A stretch of DNA of 64,000 nt from Dictyostelium discoideum (lineage: Eukaryota). The translations under genes were made by a program, and so were the position numbers. The stretch covers positions 2,976,001 to 3,040,000 of the forward strand of contig CM000152.2 of the NCBI GenBank assembly GCA_000004695.1. Direction: 5' to 3'. Numbering within the stretch: position 1 is the stretch's first letter; each line of letters starts with the position of its first letter. Shown piece after piece: positions 3,381-19,227 of this stretch. The notes under the pieces were generated by a model. It saw only the letters and a list, made by a program, of their open reading frames with translations. It was not told where the DNA came from and searched no databases.

Positions 3381-3848
3381 ATGAGTGGGAAACACTTATT
3401 CCTCATTTATTTCATAATATTTTCATTCCTTTTTATAAATATATATTGCGAAAATAACAACGTTAATGACAATGAAAATAATAATGATAAAACTTTTATA
3501 TTAAATAGAAATAATACTCATAGTATTAACGATAACACTACAAATAAAAATAATAATAAAAATAATAATAATAAAAATAATAATAATAATAAAAATAATA
3601 ATAATAATGGTAATAATGAGGATGATAATAGTTTAAATATAAATAATAATGAGGGAAAACGTTATAAACCCAAACCAACAATAACTATAACACCAATACA
3701 ACATCATACTCCTCATCCACATACACCACCACACCATTCACGACCACCACATTCACAACGACCACCACCAACTCGTCCACCAAATACATTTTACCCAAGA
3801 CCAACTAAAAGCCCATCATTACCAAACGAAAGTAGTGATCCAAATAAA

Positions 3849-3883
<35 letters not shown>

Positions 3884-4217
3884 AAGTAGTAGCAGTAGTA
3901 GCAGTAGTAGTAGTAATAATAATAATACAGATACAGGAGATGTAATACCAATGGATAGTGGTGATAACTCAGAATCAATTGTATATGATAATTTATTCTC
4001 AAAATCAATGAAACAAATTTTAGGAAATTCAAAAACTGATCCAATAACGGCTTATGTAAATTATAAATATGATTTATTTTTAAATAGATATAATATCAGT
4101 AGTGGTAATGATAATAGTAATAGTAATAGTACAGATTTTAATAGTACAAAAAGTAATGGTTTAGAATATTCTTCATTTTTAAAAGAATATATAGAAGAAA
4201 GAAAAATCAATTTTTTA

Positions 4218-4312
<95 letters not shown>

Positions 4313-7277
4313 TAAGAATTTTTTATTTAAAACATCAACAAATATAAATAATAATAATAATAATGAAAAAATTAAATTAAAAGAAAATAATTTAAATTTA
4401 AAAAATTTAACAATAATGAATAAGATTATAACGAATAGTAGTATAGAATCAAGTTCAATTTATAATAGTAGTTTAAGTGATTTTAGTAAGGTAAAGAATT
4501 GTACACTTTTCAATACGGAATTGGTTAATACTATTATTGAAAATAGTGTATTAGATAATTGTATCATTAGAAAATGTATCATTAGGAACAGTGTTTTAAT
4601 CAATCGATCAATGATAACCAATGACACGTTCATTAGTAATAGCACCATTATTGGTGATAGTAAATTTAATAGTAGAGTTAATAACGCCACCATTACCAAT
4701 CATTCAATAATATTGAATACTAAAATCAGTAGAACTATCATTAATGAAAAGTCAACTTTAAAATCTTGTAAAATTATATTTAGTAATTTAAAAAATAGTA
4801 TCTTTCAAAATTCAGTGGTTTTCAATAGTTTAAATGCAAATTGCACTTTTGATAATACAACTGTAATTTTCGATAATTTCAATGGTGGTTCAAATGATGG
4901 ACAGTTTGGTAATACAAACGATACTGATCACAACAACGATTATAATGAAGAAGAGGAAGATAATTACCTTTTTGATGACTATACTGATTGTTTCTCATCT
5001 GTTGTTTCAAATTATTTCAATAGAGATATAATGCATAATATTGAACAAGTTAAACATAATTTTATAATTGATAATAATAATAATAATGATGATGATAATA
5101 ATACTGATCCATTATTTCCACCATCAGATTCAACAAAAACAAGAAATTCAAATTCTACAACAACGACAACATCAACAACTTCAGCATCAGAACCAACACC
5201 ACCTCCACCTCCACCAATTCCCCCAACATCAACATCAACATCAACATCATCAACATCATCAACATCAACATCATCAACATTATCAACATCAACATCATCA
5301 ACATTATCAACATCAACATCTACATTAACATCATCAGAAACTAATGATTCAAATCAAGGTCCAGGACCATCAACACCACCACCAAAATTACAATGGAAAA
5401 AATTAAAAATTAAAGTTGATTATAGTTATTTAACAAAAGGATTTGAAAAATCTTGTAAAGTTCAAGGTCAAAAGATTATTATTGGTAAAGTTGATCAAAG
5501 TATACCAATTGAAAAACAGAGAAATTGTTCAAGTGATATTAAATTAAATTGTAATTATTATTGTGGTAAAAGTGATATATTGACAGATGACCTCATTGAT
5601 TTCATAAAATATTCAGTTGTAACAGATATGGTTTCAATTTTTCAATCACTTTTATCAGTTCAATCTGGTCCAAAATTAGAGATTGATAGATTCATTTGGG
5701 GTACAACTGGTGGACAATGTACAGAGGGTATTAAAATCTCAAGAGAATATGTTGATAAGGGTATAGATGATTATAATTTCCTTTTGTATATAACAGCAAT
5801 ACCAATACCATTAAGAAGTGCATTTGCCTATGGGTTGCCTTGTAATTTCAATTTAAAAAATCCATCTAAAAACATTCGTGGTAGACCATTGGTTGGTACG
5901 ATTAATTTTCAACCAAAATCATTTCAAAGATTAATGAAATGCTCAAAAGATGTAAACGATCATGACTCTAGAAAACAATATAATACAGCTATAAAAATTG
6001 CAATGCATGAGATGGTGCATGTACTTGGTTTCTCTCCATTCTATTTCAATAGTTATATAGATCAAAATGGTAGAGCTCATGCAAGTGTAAACGTTACTAA
6101 AAGTATCGTTGGTGTTAATCCATCGAAAACCTCTGTCAAAAATGTGGTTGCCGTATTAATTACACCTCAATTAAACTATGTAGTTAATAAATATTACGGT
6201 TGTTCAAATAATGATACAGGTATTGAGTTGGAGAGTCATTTAAATCAAAACTTCCCACCCAATATGTTGGATGCTCATTTCTCATCTCGTATTGCCTATG
6301 GTGAATTAATGACTTCTGCTCGTAATCCTACAATGTCACTCTCTGTTTTAACTTTGGCATTACTTCAAGATATGGGTTGGTATCGTGTTGATACTTCAAT
6401 TCCACAAGAATACTTTTGGGGTAAAAATCAAGGTTGTCAATTTCTAACAGGTAGATGTGAACAACGTAATCAAAACTATGGTCATCATTGTGATACTAAA
6501 CCATTGGGTTGTTCAGTGGATCGTAGATCAATAAACAATTGTAGTTACAAAGATGTTGGTACCGTATTGGATCCTTACTATCAACATTTTTCAAATGCTA
6601 GATTCGGTGGTGATCCTGAAATGGAATATTGTACTGCCTATACTTCTTCCATGTCCATCGAATGTGCTACTGTTCTATCAAATGAAAGTAATTCAAGATG
6701 TTTTGATTTCAAATATTCAAATTCAAATAACCATTCTTTCCCTCAATGTATACCTCAACGTTGTTATCAAAATATTTTACAAATATTTTATAATAATACT
6801 TATTTCAATTGTCCATTTGATGGTGGTTCTTTAAATCTTGGTAATAATTTAACTGTTTTTTGTCCAGAATATAATTTCTTTTGTTCAAATTTACTTTTAC
6901 CTTCAATGTTAGTAAGTTTTTTTTAATTTATTTATTATTTATTATTTAATTAAATTTTAACATATTAACTTTTTTTTTTTATTTTTTATTTTTTTTTTCA
7001 ATAGCAACAAGGAAGTGATTCTGGATCAACAAATTTCCAAGATTTTGATCCACCATTTTATAAAAGACATGCATTTTGGATACCACTATCTTTAGCAATT
7101 ACTTTAACACTTGGTTTGATATTTTTAGTTGTTTTCTATAGGAAAAAGTATCCACCAATTACAAAAACATTGAAAATGAAATCTCCAATTTCTGAATTCA
7201 ACAATATAAATTCAAATGATAAAAGTTCTTTAAGGATGAAAAAGTTTAGTAAAGTAATAGAAGATGAAACTGTTTAA
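3381..7277 (+). CDS. Leishmanolysin-like (peptidase M8) zinc metalloprotease; signal peptide, long Asn/Ser/Thr/Pro-rich N-terminal region, C-terminal TM anchor
   Basis: join(3381..6911,7005..7277). Has the HEMVHVLGF HExxH zinc motif within an M8-like catalytic region (GTTGGQCTEG, SRIAYGELM, many Cys). The N-terminal hydrophobic signal is MSGKHLFLIYFIIFSFLF. Donor GTAAGT at 6912, acceptor CAATAG at 7004. Exon 2 encodes the TM helix WIPLSLAITLTLGLIFLVVF plus a basic tail. Confidence 0.75.
4219..4311 (+). repeat. (AAT)n microsatellite (poly-Asn) inside the leishmanolysin-like gene
   Basis: Direct observation. Similar (AAT)n tracts occur at 18196-18330, 37561-37650, 48581-48700 and 63871-63940. 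Confidence 0.9.
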
Positions 7278-7396: not shown

Positions 7397-8706
7397 TTAT
7401 TTTGTTAAAATTTCATAACCATCTTTTGTTACTAAAATTGTATGTTCAAATTGAGCAGACCAACCACCTTCTCTTGAGGAAACTGTCCATTTATCATCCC
7501 ACATTTTCCATTCTGCATATGGAGATGTTGATTCAACTAAAACTGGTTCAATAGTAAAAATCATACCTTCTTTCATAACTGAATCAAATTCATTTGCACA
7601 TTGGAATACAAAAGGTGCTGTATGGAAAAGTTGACCTATACCATGTCCTGTAAATTCTGGTGTTACACTTAATGAATATTTATTTGCAACTAATCTATTT
7701 TTTTTTTTAAAAAAAAAAAAAAAATTAATTAATAATTTAAAGTTTGGAAAAATTATAGGTAAAAATATTAATTATTTTAAAATACTTACTGAATCTTTTT
7801 ACCAATTTTATTAAATAAAGCACCATCTTTAACTTCACCAATTGCAGCATATAATGCTTTTTCTGTAGCTTCAATTAAACGTTTTGAAGAAGAATCAATT
7901 TCACCTACTGGAAAAGTTGCACAAGTATCACCATGATAACCATTATAATAGAGGGTTACATCAATTTTTACAATATCACCAAATTCCAAAGGTCTATCAT
8001 CAGGAATACCATGACATAATACTTCATTTATTGAAGTGCAAATTGATTTTGGAAAACCTTTATATCCTAATGGTGATGGATAGGCACCACGGTCTATAAT
8101 ATTTTGATGAACTAATTTATCGATTTCATCAGTTGTAATACCTGGTCTGACTAATGTACCAGCATATTCTAAAACTTCTTTTGCCATTTTACCAACTACT
8201 CTCATATGTTCAATACTTTCTGCTGTATGAATTTCAATTGGATCATCTATTTCAAAATCTATAACTGGTTCACCTAAAACATATTTTGGTTTTTTAATAT
8301 GTGCTGGAATTAATGGTTGAGGTGAAACTATTCCGCCTCTAATTAAATTATCTGGATTTCTATAAAGTTTGGTTGTCATTTTTCTTCTTTCTTTTCTATT
8401 CATTCCTTCCAATGGTGATGCTGTTTTCTTTGTTAATCTTTGTGATCTTACAAAATCTCTAATCTCTTCTGTTTCATTTTCTAAAATCTTTTCTTTTAAT
8501 TTTTTTGGTGATAAATCATCTTCAAATGAAGAATAATATCTTTGTTGTTGTTTTTGTTGTACATTATATGATTTTATTATATTATTATTATTATTTAAAT
8601 AAGATGATGAGGATGAGGATGATGATGAAATTCCACCATTAAATGATGTTTTAAAAACATTATTGATTGATGATTTATTAATAATATTCTTTAAAATTTT
8701 ATTCAT
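7397..8706 (-). CDS. Methionine aminopeptidase type 1 (MetAP1)
   Basis: complement(join(7397..7694,7790..8706)). Exon 1 ends ...GKKIQ(CA) at the GTAAGT donor, and the 95-nt intron ends AAATAG. Exon 2 encodes LVANKYSLSVTPEFTGHGIGQLFHTAPFV...EHTILVTKDGYEILTK, containing the MetAP GHGIG motif and metal ligands. The N-terminal Ser/Asn-rich extension suggests an organellar isoform. Confidence 0.85.
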
Positions 8707-8894: not shown

Positions 8895-9097
8895 ATGGCA
8901 AAGAAATCATTATTAGTATCAACATTAATACCTATGGTTGGTGTTACATTAGTATCATTTGGGGTTTTACATCATTTTATGCAACATAAATTTGAAAGAT
9001 GGGATCATGAATCTTTGGGCGACCCAAATAAAAAACCAACTACTTTAGAAGAAGAATATGAGGTAAGAAAAATATTATAATATTATATAAATAATAG

Positions 9098-9577: not shown

Positions 9578-9706
9578 TTATTTTGATGATACCAACATTA
9601 ATATTTTTTCAACAGCTTTTTGAATTGATGGGTGTGGCGAAGATTTAAGGTATTGAAGTGGTTCAATAATATTTGATGATTTTAAATATGGAATATGAAT
9701 TGCTAT

Positions 9707-9749
<43 letters not shown>

Positions 9750-12700
9750 CTGTTAATATTATTATTATTATTAAAAAAATTAAATAAACATACGATTTAC
9801 AGATAAAACCAAAATGATTTTTAAAGCAGTCATTTGTGGTGCCATTGAAGTTGAATTTGGATCTAAATAAGATAATAATAAATCTACAATATTTGAAGCA
9901 GTTAAGATGAATTGACTATCTTTATTTGAGACTAAACAAGCGATTGCTTCTAAACCCAACATTCTTAATGCTTCGAATTGAGTATCACCCAATAGGGAGA
10001 GATATTTCTTTACAACTCTTTCACGATAATGACCGAGATTAATTTGATCTTGAACGGATTTCAAAGAGATAACTCTTGCAAGTGCAGAAGCGACACGTAA
10101 ATCGAAACCACTATTAATTGAATGTACCATCATATCCAACAATTGATTTACGCCACCCAATTTGACAAATTCAACCTGTACAGAATTTGACTCTAAAAGT
10201 AATGTTAAACACCAAAGAATTTGCAATCTAATCAATTCATTCTGATGAGATAATAGATTGATTAATAGTGGAATACCACCTTTGATGAGGATTTGCTCTC
10301 TATTCTCTTCACGGTCAGCACCATTTGATAATTGTGATAGTAGACGTAGGGTAATGAAGAGGATATTCTCTTTTTGTGAATTCAAAGTCTCCATTAAGAT
10401 ATTGATACCCAATAAATTTCTAAACAAATTCATAATCTCTTCATTGTGTTCAATTAATGTTGAAAATTGTTTTAAACATGATAATTGAATCTCATCATAG
10501 GGCTGATCCATCAATTGGAAGATTAAAGGTACGAAATCTGCCTCCAATAGATATTCAATATTTTCAACATTTTTACAAAGTTGATCAATGGTTTGACTTG
10601 CTCTATGTAAATTCAATAAAGTTGGTTGACTAATTAAATCCTTTACAACATTTGCAATCTTTTCAATTTTTACTCTCTTTTCTGGATCCAATGATTCATT
10701 AAATCTTTTATTTGGATTTAAAAGATTATTCATTTCATTCTTTATTTTTTCTTCAACTTGTTCTTGTGAAACTAATGAATCTTGAGTAGAAGTTGATGAA
10801 GTTGATGATGTTAATTGTTGTTCTGGTTGTTGTTGTTGTTGATCTTGTTGTTGTTGTTGTTGTTGTTGTTGTGTTGGTTTATTAAATCTTTGAATTGTAT
10901 GTAATGGTTGTCTTAAAATTTTTAAAATTGTTGTAAAAGTTGGTCTAACGGATGGATCAGTTGATAAACAAAGTTTAATTAATTTTTCAATTGTGAATGG
11001 ACAATTTGGTAAAGGTGGTCTAAGATAATGAGTATAACCATTGACAGTGTTACTCTTTAGATCGGATAATTTAATATCACGAGCGAACATCTCCCAAAGT
11101 AAAACACCAAAACTGAAAACATCAACCTTTGTATCGTAACCACCCTTTGAACCTGACAAAACATTGAATAGCTCTGGTGCAAGGTATTGGGTGTGTAATA
11201 ATTGATTCTTTAATTGAAAAGACATAAACTTCTTTTTCAAAGTTTCATCCTTCAATGAAGTGAAACCATAATCTTTGATATAGATCTTCAAATCTGAATT
11301 CAATAGAATATTCTTTGGATGCAATGATCTATGAACGATATTAAAAGAGTGAAGGAATGACATGGCCGAAGCAATCTCTTCCGATAGTCTAAGAATTAAT
11401 TGAAGTTCATTCTTCTCATCTAAATTCTTTATGACGATATCTAAATTGCTACCAGTGATATACTCTGTAAAGGTGGTGAATGTTTGATTGTCAAATGATG
11501 CTCCTGCCAATGCTAAAATATTTGGATGTTTAATTGCTACCAATTGCTCAATCTCATTGAATAACATTGGTGTCGCTTGTGATGTTATGAAATTCCATTG
11601 TTTCATCACTATTCTCTTATCCTTATGAATACCTGCTCTTTGTGTTGTACCATTATTACCTGATCCAATAATATCTGATGGTTGTGCTTTAATATACCAT
11701 GATTTATCTGATTGTTGTTGTTCAATTTGATTCTGTTCATCAATTAATTCTTTATTATTATTATTACCATTGCTATTATTATCATTATTTTTATTTGTAA
11801 TATCATCATCTAAATCATTATTACCTAAAATCTTTTGAATAACTTGTTCATCAGGTGTTAATTGTACTTTTACTTTTGATTGTAATGATTGTTCTTCAAC
11901 TGATAATGGATAGAATTGTTGTGATGTATAAACAACTTTTGGAGCTGATGGGTCAAGATTACTTGAAGATGTTAATAGATTTGAATTACTCTCTTTAAAA
12001 TGTGAAATCATATCATCTAATAATTGATCTGAATCTTTGAATGTTGGTGATACAGGTGTTGATACTGTTGTTGTTGGTGGTTGTGGTTGTGATGTTGGTG
12101 TTGGTTGTGGTGCTGCTGGTTGTGGTGCTGCTGATTGTGATGGTGATGGTGATGATAATGTTGGTATTGGTGTTGGTGCTTTTGGTGATGATACTTGAAT
12201 ATCAACTGGTGCACCAAGTTTTGCTGCTGGTCTAGTTGTTAATGTACCATTTGGTGATTTACTAGCATTTAATTTATTAACTGTTGCTGCTGTAGTTGTA
12301 TTAGTAGAGGTAGTGGTTGATGGTGTTACAATTGGTGTTGGTATTGATGTAGTTTTAATCTCTTTTGGTAAACTATTATTACCATTTGGTTCTGGTATAC
12401 CTCCAAATGATTCAATCATTTCATCTAATAAATCTGCTGCATCAATTGCTTCTTTAGTTAAAATAATTGCTCTTTCTGATGAAACTCTCTTTAATATTGG
12501 ATTACCATTCTTTACACTATCTGTTAATATTTGTTCATCTGCTGTTGTTGTTGTTGGTGGTGGTGGTGGTAATTGTAATTCTTCAGTTGATGGTGGTGGT
12601 AATGGTAATTCCTCAGTTGTTGGTGGTGGAGGTAAAGAAATTGAAACAGGTGGTGGTAATTTTGCAATTATTACTACATCATCTTGTTGTGATGGTGGTG

Positions 12701-13510
12701 GTGGTAGTGGTAATGTTGAAGCATTATTATTACTAATTATATTTGATGGATTTGAAGGTGGTGATAAATTTTTAGATAAATATGAAGATGGTTTTCTTTT
12801 ATTTTGAATTGAACTATCTTTCATAAAAGTTTCTTCTAAATCTTTTAAAGTTGATTCTAAATCAAAGGTTGAGGTGAGTCTTAAAGATTTGATTCTAGAA
12901 TTATCAGTTTTAATTGAATTTCTAATTGACTCATCACTCATATCATTTAAGAGTGTATCTAAATAATCAAATCCTCCTTCATTTAAATTACTTGGATGTT
13001 GTGATAATCTTGATTTTCTTTTCTCTGTTGCTGATTGTTGGGCTGCTGTTGTGGTTGTTGTTGAACTATTTCCATTTCCATTTGGCATTTGCTCTTGAAA
13101 TGATATTTTTGTTGCAGAATTACCATTATTATTATTATTATTGTTGTTGTTGCTGTTGTTGTTGTTTAAATTTATTGTTGATTGACCATTTAATGCAGCC
13201 TCTGATTCTGCTAACATCTCATTTAATAAATCATCCAATTCTAATGTGAATTAAAATATAATTCATTTATTTAATTTTTATTATGAAAATAAAATTTTAA
13301 TTTGAAAAAAAAAAAAAAAAAAAAAAAAAAAATTATATAATAAAATAAAATAAAATAAGAAATAGGGAAAAGTAAAATAAAAAGTTTTAAAAAAAAAAAA
13401 AAAATTATTAGATTTTTATCCCATGATTAGGAAAATAAAATTTTAAAAAAAATAATAAAAAAAAAATGGAAAATAAAAAAAAAAAAAAAAAAAATTACTT
13501 ACCAGACATG
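9578..13510 (-). CDS. Protein-kinase-fold protein with C-terminal armadillo/HEAT-like repeats; predicted pseudokinase (HRS instead of HRD, DYG instead of DFG)
   Basis: complement(join(9578..9702,9794..13240,13504..13510)). There is a 7-nt first exon ATGTCTG followed by GTAAGTA; the ORF-track leading M is actually TTG. The kinase core has GSGNNG, VMK, HPNIL, the catalytic loop HRSLHPKN, DYG, and APE. A 3' GTATGT donor at 9793 is followed by a terminal exon ...PIHIPYLKSSNIIEPLQYLKSSPHPSIQKAVEKILMLVSSK*. The C-terminal 450 aa are leucine-rich helical repeats (LLINLL.., GGIPLLINLLSH). Confidence 0.7.

Positions 13511-15361: not shown

Positions 15362-19227
<3,866 letters not shown>

Follow-up and report, generated by a model that had tools for sequence, protein, structure and literature searches.

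DDB_G0280131 of Dictyostelium discoideum, a probable ATP-binding pseudokinase with an armadillo solenoid and conserved LD-like motifs

Could a protein-kinase-like domain without its catalytic aspartate still be a working part of a signalling protein? This question is raised by a minus-strand gene in a 64,000-nucleotide stretch of Dictyostelium discoideum DNA (GenBank assembly GCA_000004695.1, contig CM000152.2, positions 2,976,001 to 3,040,000; hereafter the window). The original prediction, made from the letters of the window, described its product as a predicted inactive protein in which a kinase fold without the catalytic Asp is joined to armadillo (ARM) repeats. The locus is DDB_G0280131, with the kinome id DDB0230038. 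Here, we compare its product with orthologues and more distant relatives, and suggest that its kinase-like domain is probably a non-catalytic but ATP-binding member of the TKL group, serving in a signalling scaffold together with an ARM groove and N-terminal motifs.

The kinase domain matches the Pfam profile PK_Tyr_Ser-Thr (PF07714) over positions 6-257 of 258, with E=3.6e-39 and 135 bits against a cut-off of 23.1, and PF00069 with 116 bits. The closest solved kinase domains in a PDB sequence search are those of LIMK1 (2e-27), BRAF and TNNI3K, plus the pseudokinase domain TYK2 JH2. The placement of the domain that the original prediction proposed as a check thus gives a significant eukaryotic protein kinase match with TKL relatives nearest. 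The motifs that it named, that is, the Gly-rich loop, the beta3 Lys, the helix-C Glu (E565), HPNIL (at residue 574), HRSLHPKN, DYG and APE, were all located in the spliced protein. The domain and its main motifs are as follows.

10908..11690, minus strand: protein-kinase-like domain, TKL group, residues 520-780
11649..11666, minus strand: Gly-rich loop GSGNNG, residues 528-533
11601..11603, minus strand: beta3 Lys K549 in IVMK
11310..11333, minus strand: catalytic loop HRSLHPKN, residues 639-646, with S641 in place of the catalytic Asp, H643 in place of the loop Lys, and N646 kept
11265..11273, minus strand: DYG, residues 659-661, with the metal-binding Asp D659 kept
11172..11180, minus strand: APE, residues 690-692

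By the Manning/Hanks definition, a kinase-like sequence counts as a pseudokinase when one or more of three residues are missing: the beta3 Lys (K72), the catalytic Asp (D166) or the Asp of DFG (D184). Here K549 and D659 are present, while the D166 position is occupied by S641, and the domain is a pseudokinase in this sense. The loop Lys equivalent to PKA K168 is also replaced, by His643. The codon of S641 is TCA (11327..11325, minus strand), which is three substitutions away from the Asp codon GAY, and therefore Ser641 is not a base-calling slip; with Ser also kept in the orthologues, a sequencing error was ruled out. The second motif that had been read as a sign of inactivity, DYG, does not bear that weight. 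Its metal-binding Asp is kept and its middle residue, Tyr in most orthologues, is Phe in those of Polysphondylium violaceum and Clastostelium recurvatum; consequently DYG is a neutral variant of DFG that lends no support to inactivity.

How old, then, is the replacement of the Asp? A database search found full-length dictyostelid relatives in D. citrinum, D. firmibasis, D. purpureum, P. violaceum, Tieghemostelium lacteum and Acytostelium subglobosum (two paralogues), together with one EukProt entry. Three more came from a profile search of 1.84 billion representatives: Cavenderia fasciculata, a second EukProt dictyostelid and C. recurvatum, which belongs to Eumycetozoa, Protosporangiida. The Clastostelium match (E=4.7e-106) runs collinearly over profile positions 8-648. 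The catalytic loop reads HRS in each of the 11 dictyostelid sequences, which include both Acytostelium paralogues, as well as in the Clastostelium orthologue. An orthologue with HRD would have spoken against the predicted inactivity, and none was found among these sequences, so the claim is not refuted by this test. From this comparison, the loss of the catalytic Asp is ancient, fixed and older than Dictyostelia. As for single entries, the two A. subglobosum paralogues (P0008 and P0009) both carry HRS, and two orthologue entries, P0022 (2321 residues) and P0023 (Cavenderia, 1910 residues), are much longer, with a match limited to one part each, and are probably merged gene models.

Nine dictyostelid proteins were aligned. 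Invariant among them are G528, G530, G533, K549, E565, E567, H639, R640 and S641, and likewise H643, K645, N646, D659, G661 and APE. The four regions of the protein differ widely in constraint, as seen from the share of invariant columns and the identity to D. discoideum in these nine proteins.

Kinase-like domain: 49% invariant columns, 66-84% identity
10683..10907, minus strand: Q-rich linker, residues 781-855 (75 residues), pLDDT (AlphaFold's per-residue confidence) below 50; 7% invariant columns, 15-33% identity
9581..10682, minus strand: armadillo-repeat solenoid, residues 856-1192, about 8 repeats, split by intron 2; 20% invariant columns, 46-63% identity
N-terminal half: 13% invariant columns, 27-49% identity

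The kinase-like domain is thus the best conserved part, which indicates strong purifying selection and excludes decay of the gene. This matters for another explanation of the Ser, in which the gene is decaying or wrongly modelled and the residue stems from a degenerating kinase, from a mutation peculiar to the strain, or from an error of sequencing or annotation. Low complexity and poor conservation, as in the N-terminal half and the linker, might suggest such a history. However, the open reading frame (ORF) is intact, the splice sites are canonical and the product equals the RefSeq protein, HRS is present in 12 sequences from genomes or transcriptomes, TCA is three changes from GAY, and 49% of the kinase columns are invariant in Dictyostelia. 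We therefore consider this explanation extremely improbable; the comparison of orthologues effectively refutes it.

The gene model itself consists of three exons on the minus strand, with the coding sequence (CDS) running from 13509 to 9578 and a product of 1192 residues.

13503..13509, minus strand: CDS exon 1, 7 nt, ATGTCTG (codons of Met1 and Ser2, and one base of the Glu3 codon, its first)
13241..13502, minus strand: intron 1, 262 nt, AT-rich, GTAAGT..TAG (GT..AG)
9794..13240, minus strand: CDS exon 2, residues 3-1151
9703..9793, minus strand: intron 2, 91 nt, GTATGT..TAG (GT..AG)
9578..9702, minus strand: CDS exon 3, residues 1152-1192 and the stop codon TAA at 9580..9578

The middle exon corresponds to a minus-strand ORF of 1152 codons (9780..13238). 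The spliced product is identical throughout to XP_641260.1 / EAL67292.1 / UniProt Q54VU5 of D. discoideum AX4, which validates the three-exon model. The span first given for the gene, 9578-13510, has the right end and begins one base too far upstream, the ATG being at 13509. Five plus-strand ORFs inside the gene (10258-10488, 12041-12235, 12313-12807, 12467-12736 and 12926-13249) were considered and dismissed as low-complexity mirror images of the coding strand. Those within 12041..13249 encode 60-160 residues rich in V, L, G and H, mirroring the N/Q/T/P-rich codons of the coding strand, and are not genes.

In the databases, XP_641260.1/Q54VU5 is named ‘armadillo repeat-containing protein’ and ‘Probable inactive serine/threonine-protein kinase DDB_G0280131’. 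In the Dictyostelium kinome, ARMK, the ‘armadillo-repeat containing kinases’, is one of six TKL families described as Dictyostelium-specific (Goldberg et al., 2006, PLoS Genet 2:e38). Table S2 of that paper lists DDB0230038 as TKL, ARMK, with quality ‘kd’ and predicted activity ‘i’, gives its motifs as VAIK=IVMK, HRD=HRSLHPKN and DFG=DYG, and remarks ‘lacks D166’. For the other ARMK member, DDB0230124, the table likewise gives ‘i’, with TILK, HRALKLNN and DYG, and D166 is missing there as well (Goldberg et al., 2006). The row of DDB0230038 carries exactly the sequence and motifs of the protein studied here, and DDB_G0280131 is one of the two D. discoideum ARMK members. The original prediction of a kinase fold without catalytic Asp, joined to ARM repeats and presumed inactive, therefore agrees with the UniProt name and with Goldberg et al. 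(2006): since 2006 the public record has contained the gene with its ARM repeats, both motifs (HRS and DYG) and the ‘inactive’ call, and the observation is correct and not new. A literature search on the gene and protein identifiers of DDB_G0280131 found no paper, and in the searched literature ‘ARMK’ occurs in the 2006 kinome paper only. What is added here is the deep conservation of HRS, the pseudokinase-ARM architecture, usually preceded by leucine-rich repeats (LRRs), across Amoebozoa, and an array of LD-like motifs.

Is the family, then, confined to Dictyostelium? Among the best 150 profile matches, about 30 further proteins have a kinase domain followed by collinear ARM repeats. The named ones all come from Amoebozoa, that is, from Balamuthia mandrillaris, Protostelium nocturnum, Stygamoeba regulata and dictyostelids, the last as ‘leucine-rich repeat-containing proteins’. 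Since such relatives occur elsewhere in Amoebozoa (in Protosporangiida, Protosteliida, Balamuthia and Stygamoeba), ARMK is not Dictyostelium-specific. The set comprises entries P0025, P0029, P0033, P0037, P0040, P0042, P0046 and P0048 and about 20 metagenome proteins. By Pfam, most of the named relatives tested combine LRRs, kinase domain and ARM repeats, while the DDB_G0280131 orthogroup, including Clastostelium, has a disordered N-terminal region in place of the LRRs. The dictyostelid LRR-containing relatives have HRT, HRA or HGT in the catalytic loop, with DYG or DFA, and are tentatively taken to be the counterparts of DDB0230124 (HRA/DYG). A neighbour-joining tree of the kinase domains groups the kinase-then-ARM proteins apart from generic TKLs; it has no bootstrap values and at least one misplaced outgroup, and is a rough guide only, which does not discriminate between a single loss of the Asp and repeated losses. 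The pairing of kinase domain and ARM repeats had been called uncommon, which does not hold: ULK4, STK36 and the whole amoebozoan family share it, and it is not rare in kind.

The catalytic residues of this family behave in a telling way. In 31 kinase-then-ARM relatives the D166 position is occupied by Gly (9), Ser (6), Thr (4), Ala (4), Asn (4), Cys (1) or Asp (3), that is, the catalytic Asp is absent in 28. The Asp of D[FY][GA] is kept in all 31, the catalytic-loop Asn in 30 of the 31, and the beta3 Lys in every one of the 25 that could be aligned there. Drift at D166 with the nucleotide- and metal-binding residues fixed is a signature that points to lost catalysis with retained ATP binding. 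The three members that keep the Asp are P0029 (HLD) from Balamuthia, the metagenomic P0053 (HRD) and P0161 (HGD), the last of which falls with ordinary TKLs in the rough tree.

In DDB_G0280131 the residues for holding nucleotide and metal, namely the Gly-rich loop, K549, E565, N646 and D659, are all kept as far as can be read from sequence. D166 is the catalytic base and is dispensable for ATP binding according to the pseudokinase literature. For example, Asn takes the D166 position in HER3, which binds ATP at about 1 uM; D166 is also absent from ILK, and in the TKL pseudokinase IRAK3 CGS replaces HRD. We infer that the kinase-like domain would no longer transfer phosphate and would still bind ATP, serving as a conformational or docking module, while partners may be recruited by the ARM groove and by linear motifs in the N-terminal half, so that the whole protein would act as a signalling scaffold. 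The loss of the Asp is older than Dictyostelia and has been kept under strong purifying selection, which marks the protein as a probable functional pseudokinase.

Several points weigh against this interpretation. A search of the literature found neither a kinase assay nor other biochemical or genetic data on DDB_G0280131. The AlphaFold confidence of the kinase domain is low (pLDDT below 50), both in a run on residues 512-1192 with a 7-sequence alignment and in a full-length run with a 9-sequence alignment, and the integrity of the pocket was judged by sequence alone; the low value reflects the shallow alignment and is no sign of an unusual fold. From these models the ARM part and the positions of the helices in the N-terminal half were used. 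Neither His643 nor Lys645 varies within the orthogroup, and the two could conceivably support unusual chemistry. Furthermore, CASK, WNK and haspin lack canonical residues and yet have weak or atypical activity. These last points lead to the alternative of an atypical but active kinase, in which phosphotransfer would proceed without the Asp base, either substrate-assisted or helped by His643, Lys645 or Ser641. The invariance of the ATP- and metal-binding residues and of APE would fit such an enzyme, as would the fact that the strongest constraint in the protein falls on the kinase-like domain, and CASK, WNK and haspin were themselves once classed as pseudokinases. However, kept ATP-binding residues are equally typical of non-catalytic pseudokinases that bind ATP, such as HER3. 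Family-wide, the D166 position varies among G, S, T, A, N and C in a patternless manner, as expected of a site without a catalytic role, and H643 is not kept outside the orthogroup, being Lys in most relatives and Ser in Clastostelium. Because D166 is unconstrained across the family and H643 unconserved beyond the orthogroup, we give residual activity only a slight chance. A non-catalytic, ATP-binding domain in a scaffold is accordingly the reading that we prefer.

The ARM part of the proposed scaffold can be described with more structural confidence. Proteins of this kind carry repeats of about 42 residues in tandem, each with three helices, which together build a superhelix. The C-terminal region matches Pfam Arm with 34 bits (cut-off 20.6), and its sequence matches in the PDB are consensus-designed ARM proteins (3e-33), ODAD2/ARMC4 and importin-alpha. 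AlphaFold2 models residues ~851-1191 as a confident all-helical solenoid of about 23 helices (pLDDT 80-93). With this model as query, the Foldseek matches include designed ARM proteins of 8 repeats and importin-alpha3; the alignment to 8-repeat ARM structures spans about 335 columns, with a probability of 1.00 and a template-modelling (TM) score of about 0.7 (normalised to the target). The ARM/HEAT-like repeats of the original prediction are thus borne out, whereas their length of ~450 residues is not: the domain has about 337, since the unconserved, disordered Q-rich linker of 75 residues precedes it.

What could the other partner-binding part be? The N-terminal half, about 510 residues, is disordered, rich in N, Q, T and P, and fast-evolving, with five conserved short islands (13240..11994, minus strand, residues 3-418). 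These islands, and a further conserved Ser/Thr-Pro island, are listed below.

13212..13240 (exon-2 part), minus strand: LD-like island 1, residues 3-12, ELDDLLNEML; kept in 8 of 9 dictyostelid orthologues; predicted helix at residues 4-17
12939..12971, minus strand: LD-like island 2, residues 93-103, FDYLDTLLNDM; F93, D94, L96, L99, L100 and D102 invariant; predicted helix at residues 96-101
12828..12896, minus strand: conserved island 3, residues 118-140, RIKSLRLTSTFDLESTLKDLEET, with invariant residues; FDLESTLRDLEDTF in Clastostelium; predicted helix at residues 130-142
12402..12449, minus strand: LD-like island 4, residues 267-282, AIDAADLLDEMIESFG; predicted helix at residues 258-279
12153..12206, minus strand: Ser/Thr-Pro island, residues 348-365, VDIQVSSPKAPTPIPTLS; V348, D349, S354, P355, P358, T359, P360, I361, T363, L364 and S365 invariant
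11994..12029, minus strand: LD-like island 5, residues 407-418, DQLLDDMISHFK; predicted helix at residues 406-418

Three of them, islands 3, 4 and 5, can still be recognised in Clastostelium. The AlphaFold model of the whole protein has six helices in residues 1-511, all with low pLDDT; five fall on islands, the sixth being H466-473. The Ser/Thr-Pro island, which is invariant across Dictyostelia, could, from its sequence, be a proline-directed phosphorylation site or a docking site of SH3/WW type. Conserved basic clusters (EKRKSRLSQHP and QNKRKPS) and proline-rich tracts (LPLPPPP, LPPPVSISLPPPP and LQLPPPPP) lie at ~12980..12540 (minus strand, residues ~75-235). As a speculation, the basic clusters might be nuclear localisation signals, sites for basophilic kinases, or ligands of the importin-alpha-like ARM groove of the same protein.

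The LD-motif consensus of paxillin is LDXLLXXL, and examples of LD-binding domains are FAT, the vinculin tail, parvin CH2 and GIT. Four of the islands fit a relaxed form, LDx-phi-phi-xx-phi, two as LDxLLxxM and two as LDxMIxxF, and the pattern [LIM][DE]x[LMIF][LIMF]xx[LMFI] has 4 matches in residues 1-511, where 20,000 shuffles lead one to expect 0.05. The five LD peptides of human paxillin (LD1-LD5; sequences taken from PMC2572193) score best on the islands, with a summed best score of 118, compared with 82 +/- 9 for shuffled sequences (P about 0.0004). Individually, the similarity has P about 0.002 each for LD1 and LD2, while that of LD3 (P about 0.5) and LD4 (P about 0.4) lacks significance. 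The idea that the five islands correspond one by one, in collinear order, to LD1-LD5 was rejected, since the best placements break this order and two of the peptides, LD3 and LD4, fall short of significance. When the N-terminal half was searched against PDB sequences, low-complexity noise alone came back (E >= 0.2).

These matches suggest a refinement of the scaffold model, in which the protein would be a paxillin-like adaptor of adhesion or the cytoskeleton: the LD-like helices and proline-rich tracts would dock helical bundles of vinculin or talin type, and the pseudokinase-ARM module would replace the LIM domains of paxillin as the targeting or effector end. The excess of pattern matches, their coincidence with the invariant islands and the predicted N-terminal helices, the survival of islands 3, 4 and 5 in Clastostelium and the summed paxillin score all point this way, and LD signalling through paxillin and vinculin is older than the split of Amoebozoa and opisthokonts (literature). 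On the other hand, the dedicated LD-motif predictor LDMF, applied to the D. discoideum proteome, lists only PAXB and STK4L, the motifs end in M or F where the consensus has its final hydrophobic L, the LD pattern overlaps that of nuclear export signals (literature), the predicted helices are of low pLDDT, and the shortcomings of LD3 and LD4 and of collinearity count here as well. We regard the adaptor as a tentative and rather unlikely possibility, and the islands as conserved LD-like linear motifs, a lead rather than evidence of membership among LD proteins. The boldest form of the idea, to which we likewise assign a low probability, is that the N-terminal half might be a functional paxillin-type LD array, conserved throughout Eumycetozoa and joined to a pseudokinase-ARM module that binds ATP and comes from an Amoebozoa-wide family that lost its Asp early and was wrongly thought Dictyostelium-specific. 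If this were true, DDB_G0280131 would be an unrecognised adhesion or cytoskeleton scaffold plugged into the ancient paxillin-vinculin LD network. Even as a modest lead, the conserved LD-like helices offer a testable hypothesis on partners for a protein without published function.

The window around the gene is Dictyostelium-like, with about 10-35% GC and long poly-A/T intergenic tracts. The divergent upstream neighbour (15402..17213 and 17710..19227, plus strand) has two PAS domains followed by a kinase domain that is split by an intron (Pkinase profile positions 1-60, then 136-263), and is predicted from its sequence to be a PAS-domain kinase. On the other side are three features: a 1181-residue ORF for a leishmanolysin-like M8 peptidase (3381..6926, plus strand), an exon of an M24 methionine-aminopeptidase-like gene (7786..8706, minus strand), and a 61-residue ORF without a Pfam match, the N-terminal segment of which is hydrophobic (8895..9080, plus strand).

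How does DDB_G0280131 compare with known systems? Its C-terminal domain resembles importin-alpha and designed ARM proteins in aligning to 8-repeat ARM solenoids; however, the identity is about 20%, and the importin-beta-binding domain is absent. The N-terminal half, with its predicted helices, is similar to those of paxillin, Hic-5, leupaxin and Dictyostelium PaxB, where 4-5 short, acidic, Leu-rich amphipathic helices are placed along a disordered, proline-rich N-terminal region, and in both cases the first motif is at the extreme N-terminus (MSELDDLLNEML in DDB_G0280131 and MDDLDALLADLE in paxillin). In contrast to the paxillin family, DDB_G0280131 has no LIM domains, and its motifs depart from LDXLLXXL, with M or F as the last residue and two of the form LLDxMIxxF.

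As for the kinase-like domain, HER3 (HRN), ILK and IRAK3 have likewise lost D166 with an otherwise recognisable nucleotide pocket, and IRAK3 is, in addition, a pseudokinase of the TKL group in which Ser occupies the D166 position; nucleotide binding by IRAK3 was not seen in thermal-shift assays. None of the three is orthologous to DDB_G0280131, and their accessory domains are a receptor ectodomain, ankyrin repeats and a death domain. The ARMK family differs from its description in the 2006 paper, which calls it Dictyostelium-specific, in that relatives are found here beyond Dictyostelia.

The closest likeness in domain order is with ULK4, which has a (pseudo)kinase domain followed by ARM repeats, and with STK36/Fused, in which a kinase is followed by an armadillo domain. 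ULK4 is a non-catalytic pseudokinase scaffold that binds ATP and uses both domains for its partners. However, ULK4 belongs to the ULK family, whereas the domain of DDB_G0280131 is nearest to the TKLs LIMK1, BRAF and TNNI3K; the 60 listed PDB matches to it are TKL and JAK-family chains, with no ULK-family chain among them. The two also show opposite patterns of loss, since ULK4 keeps the catalytic-loop Asp and lacks the VAIK Lys and DFG. Moreover, the kinase domain of DDB_G0280131 has a central position, preceded by a disordered region of 510 residues, unlike in ULK4 and STK36. The resemblance to ULK4 and STK36 is one of architecture only.

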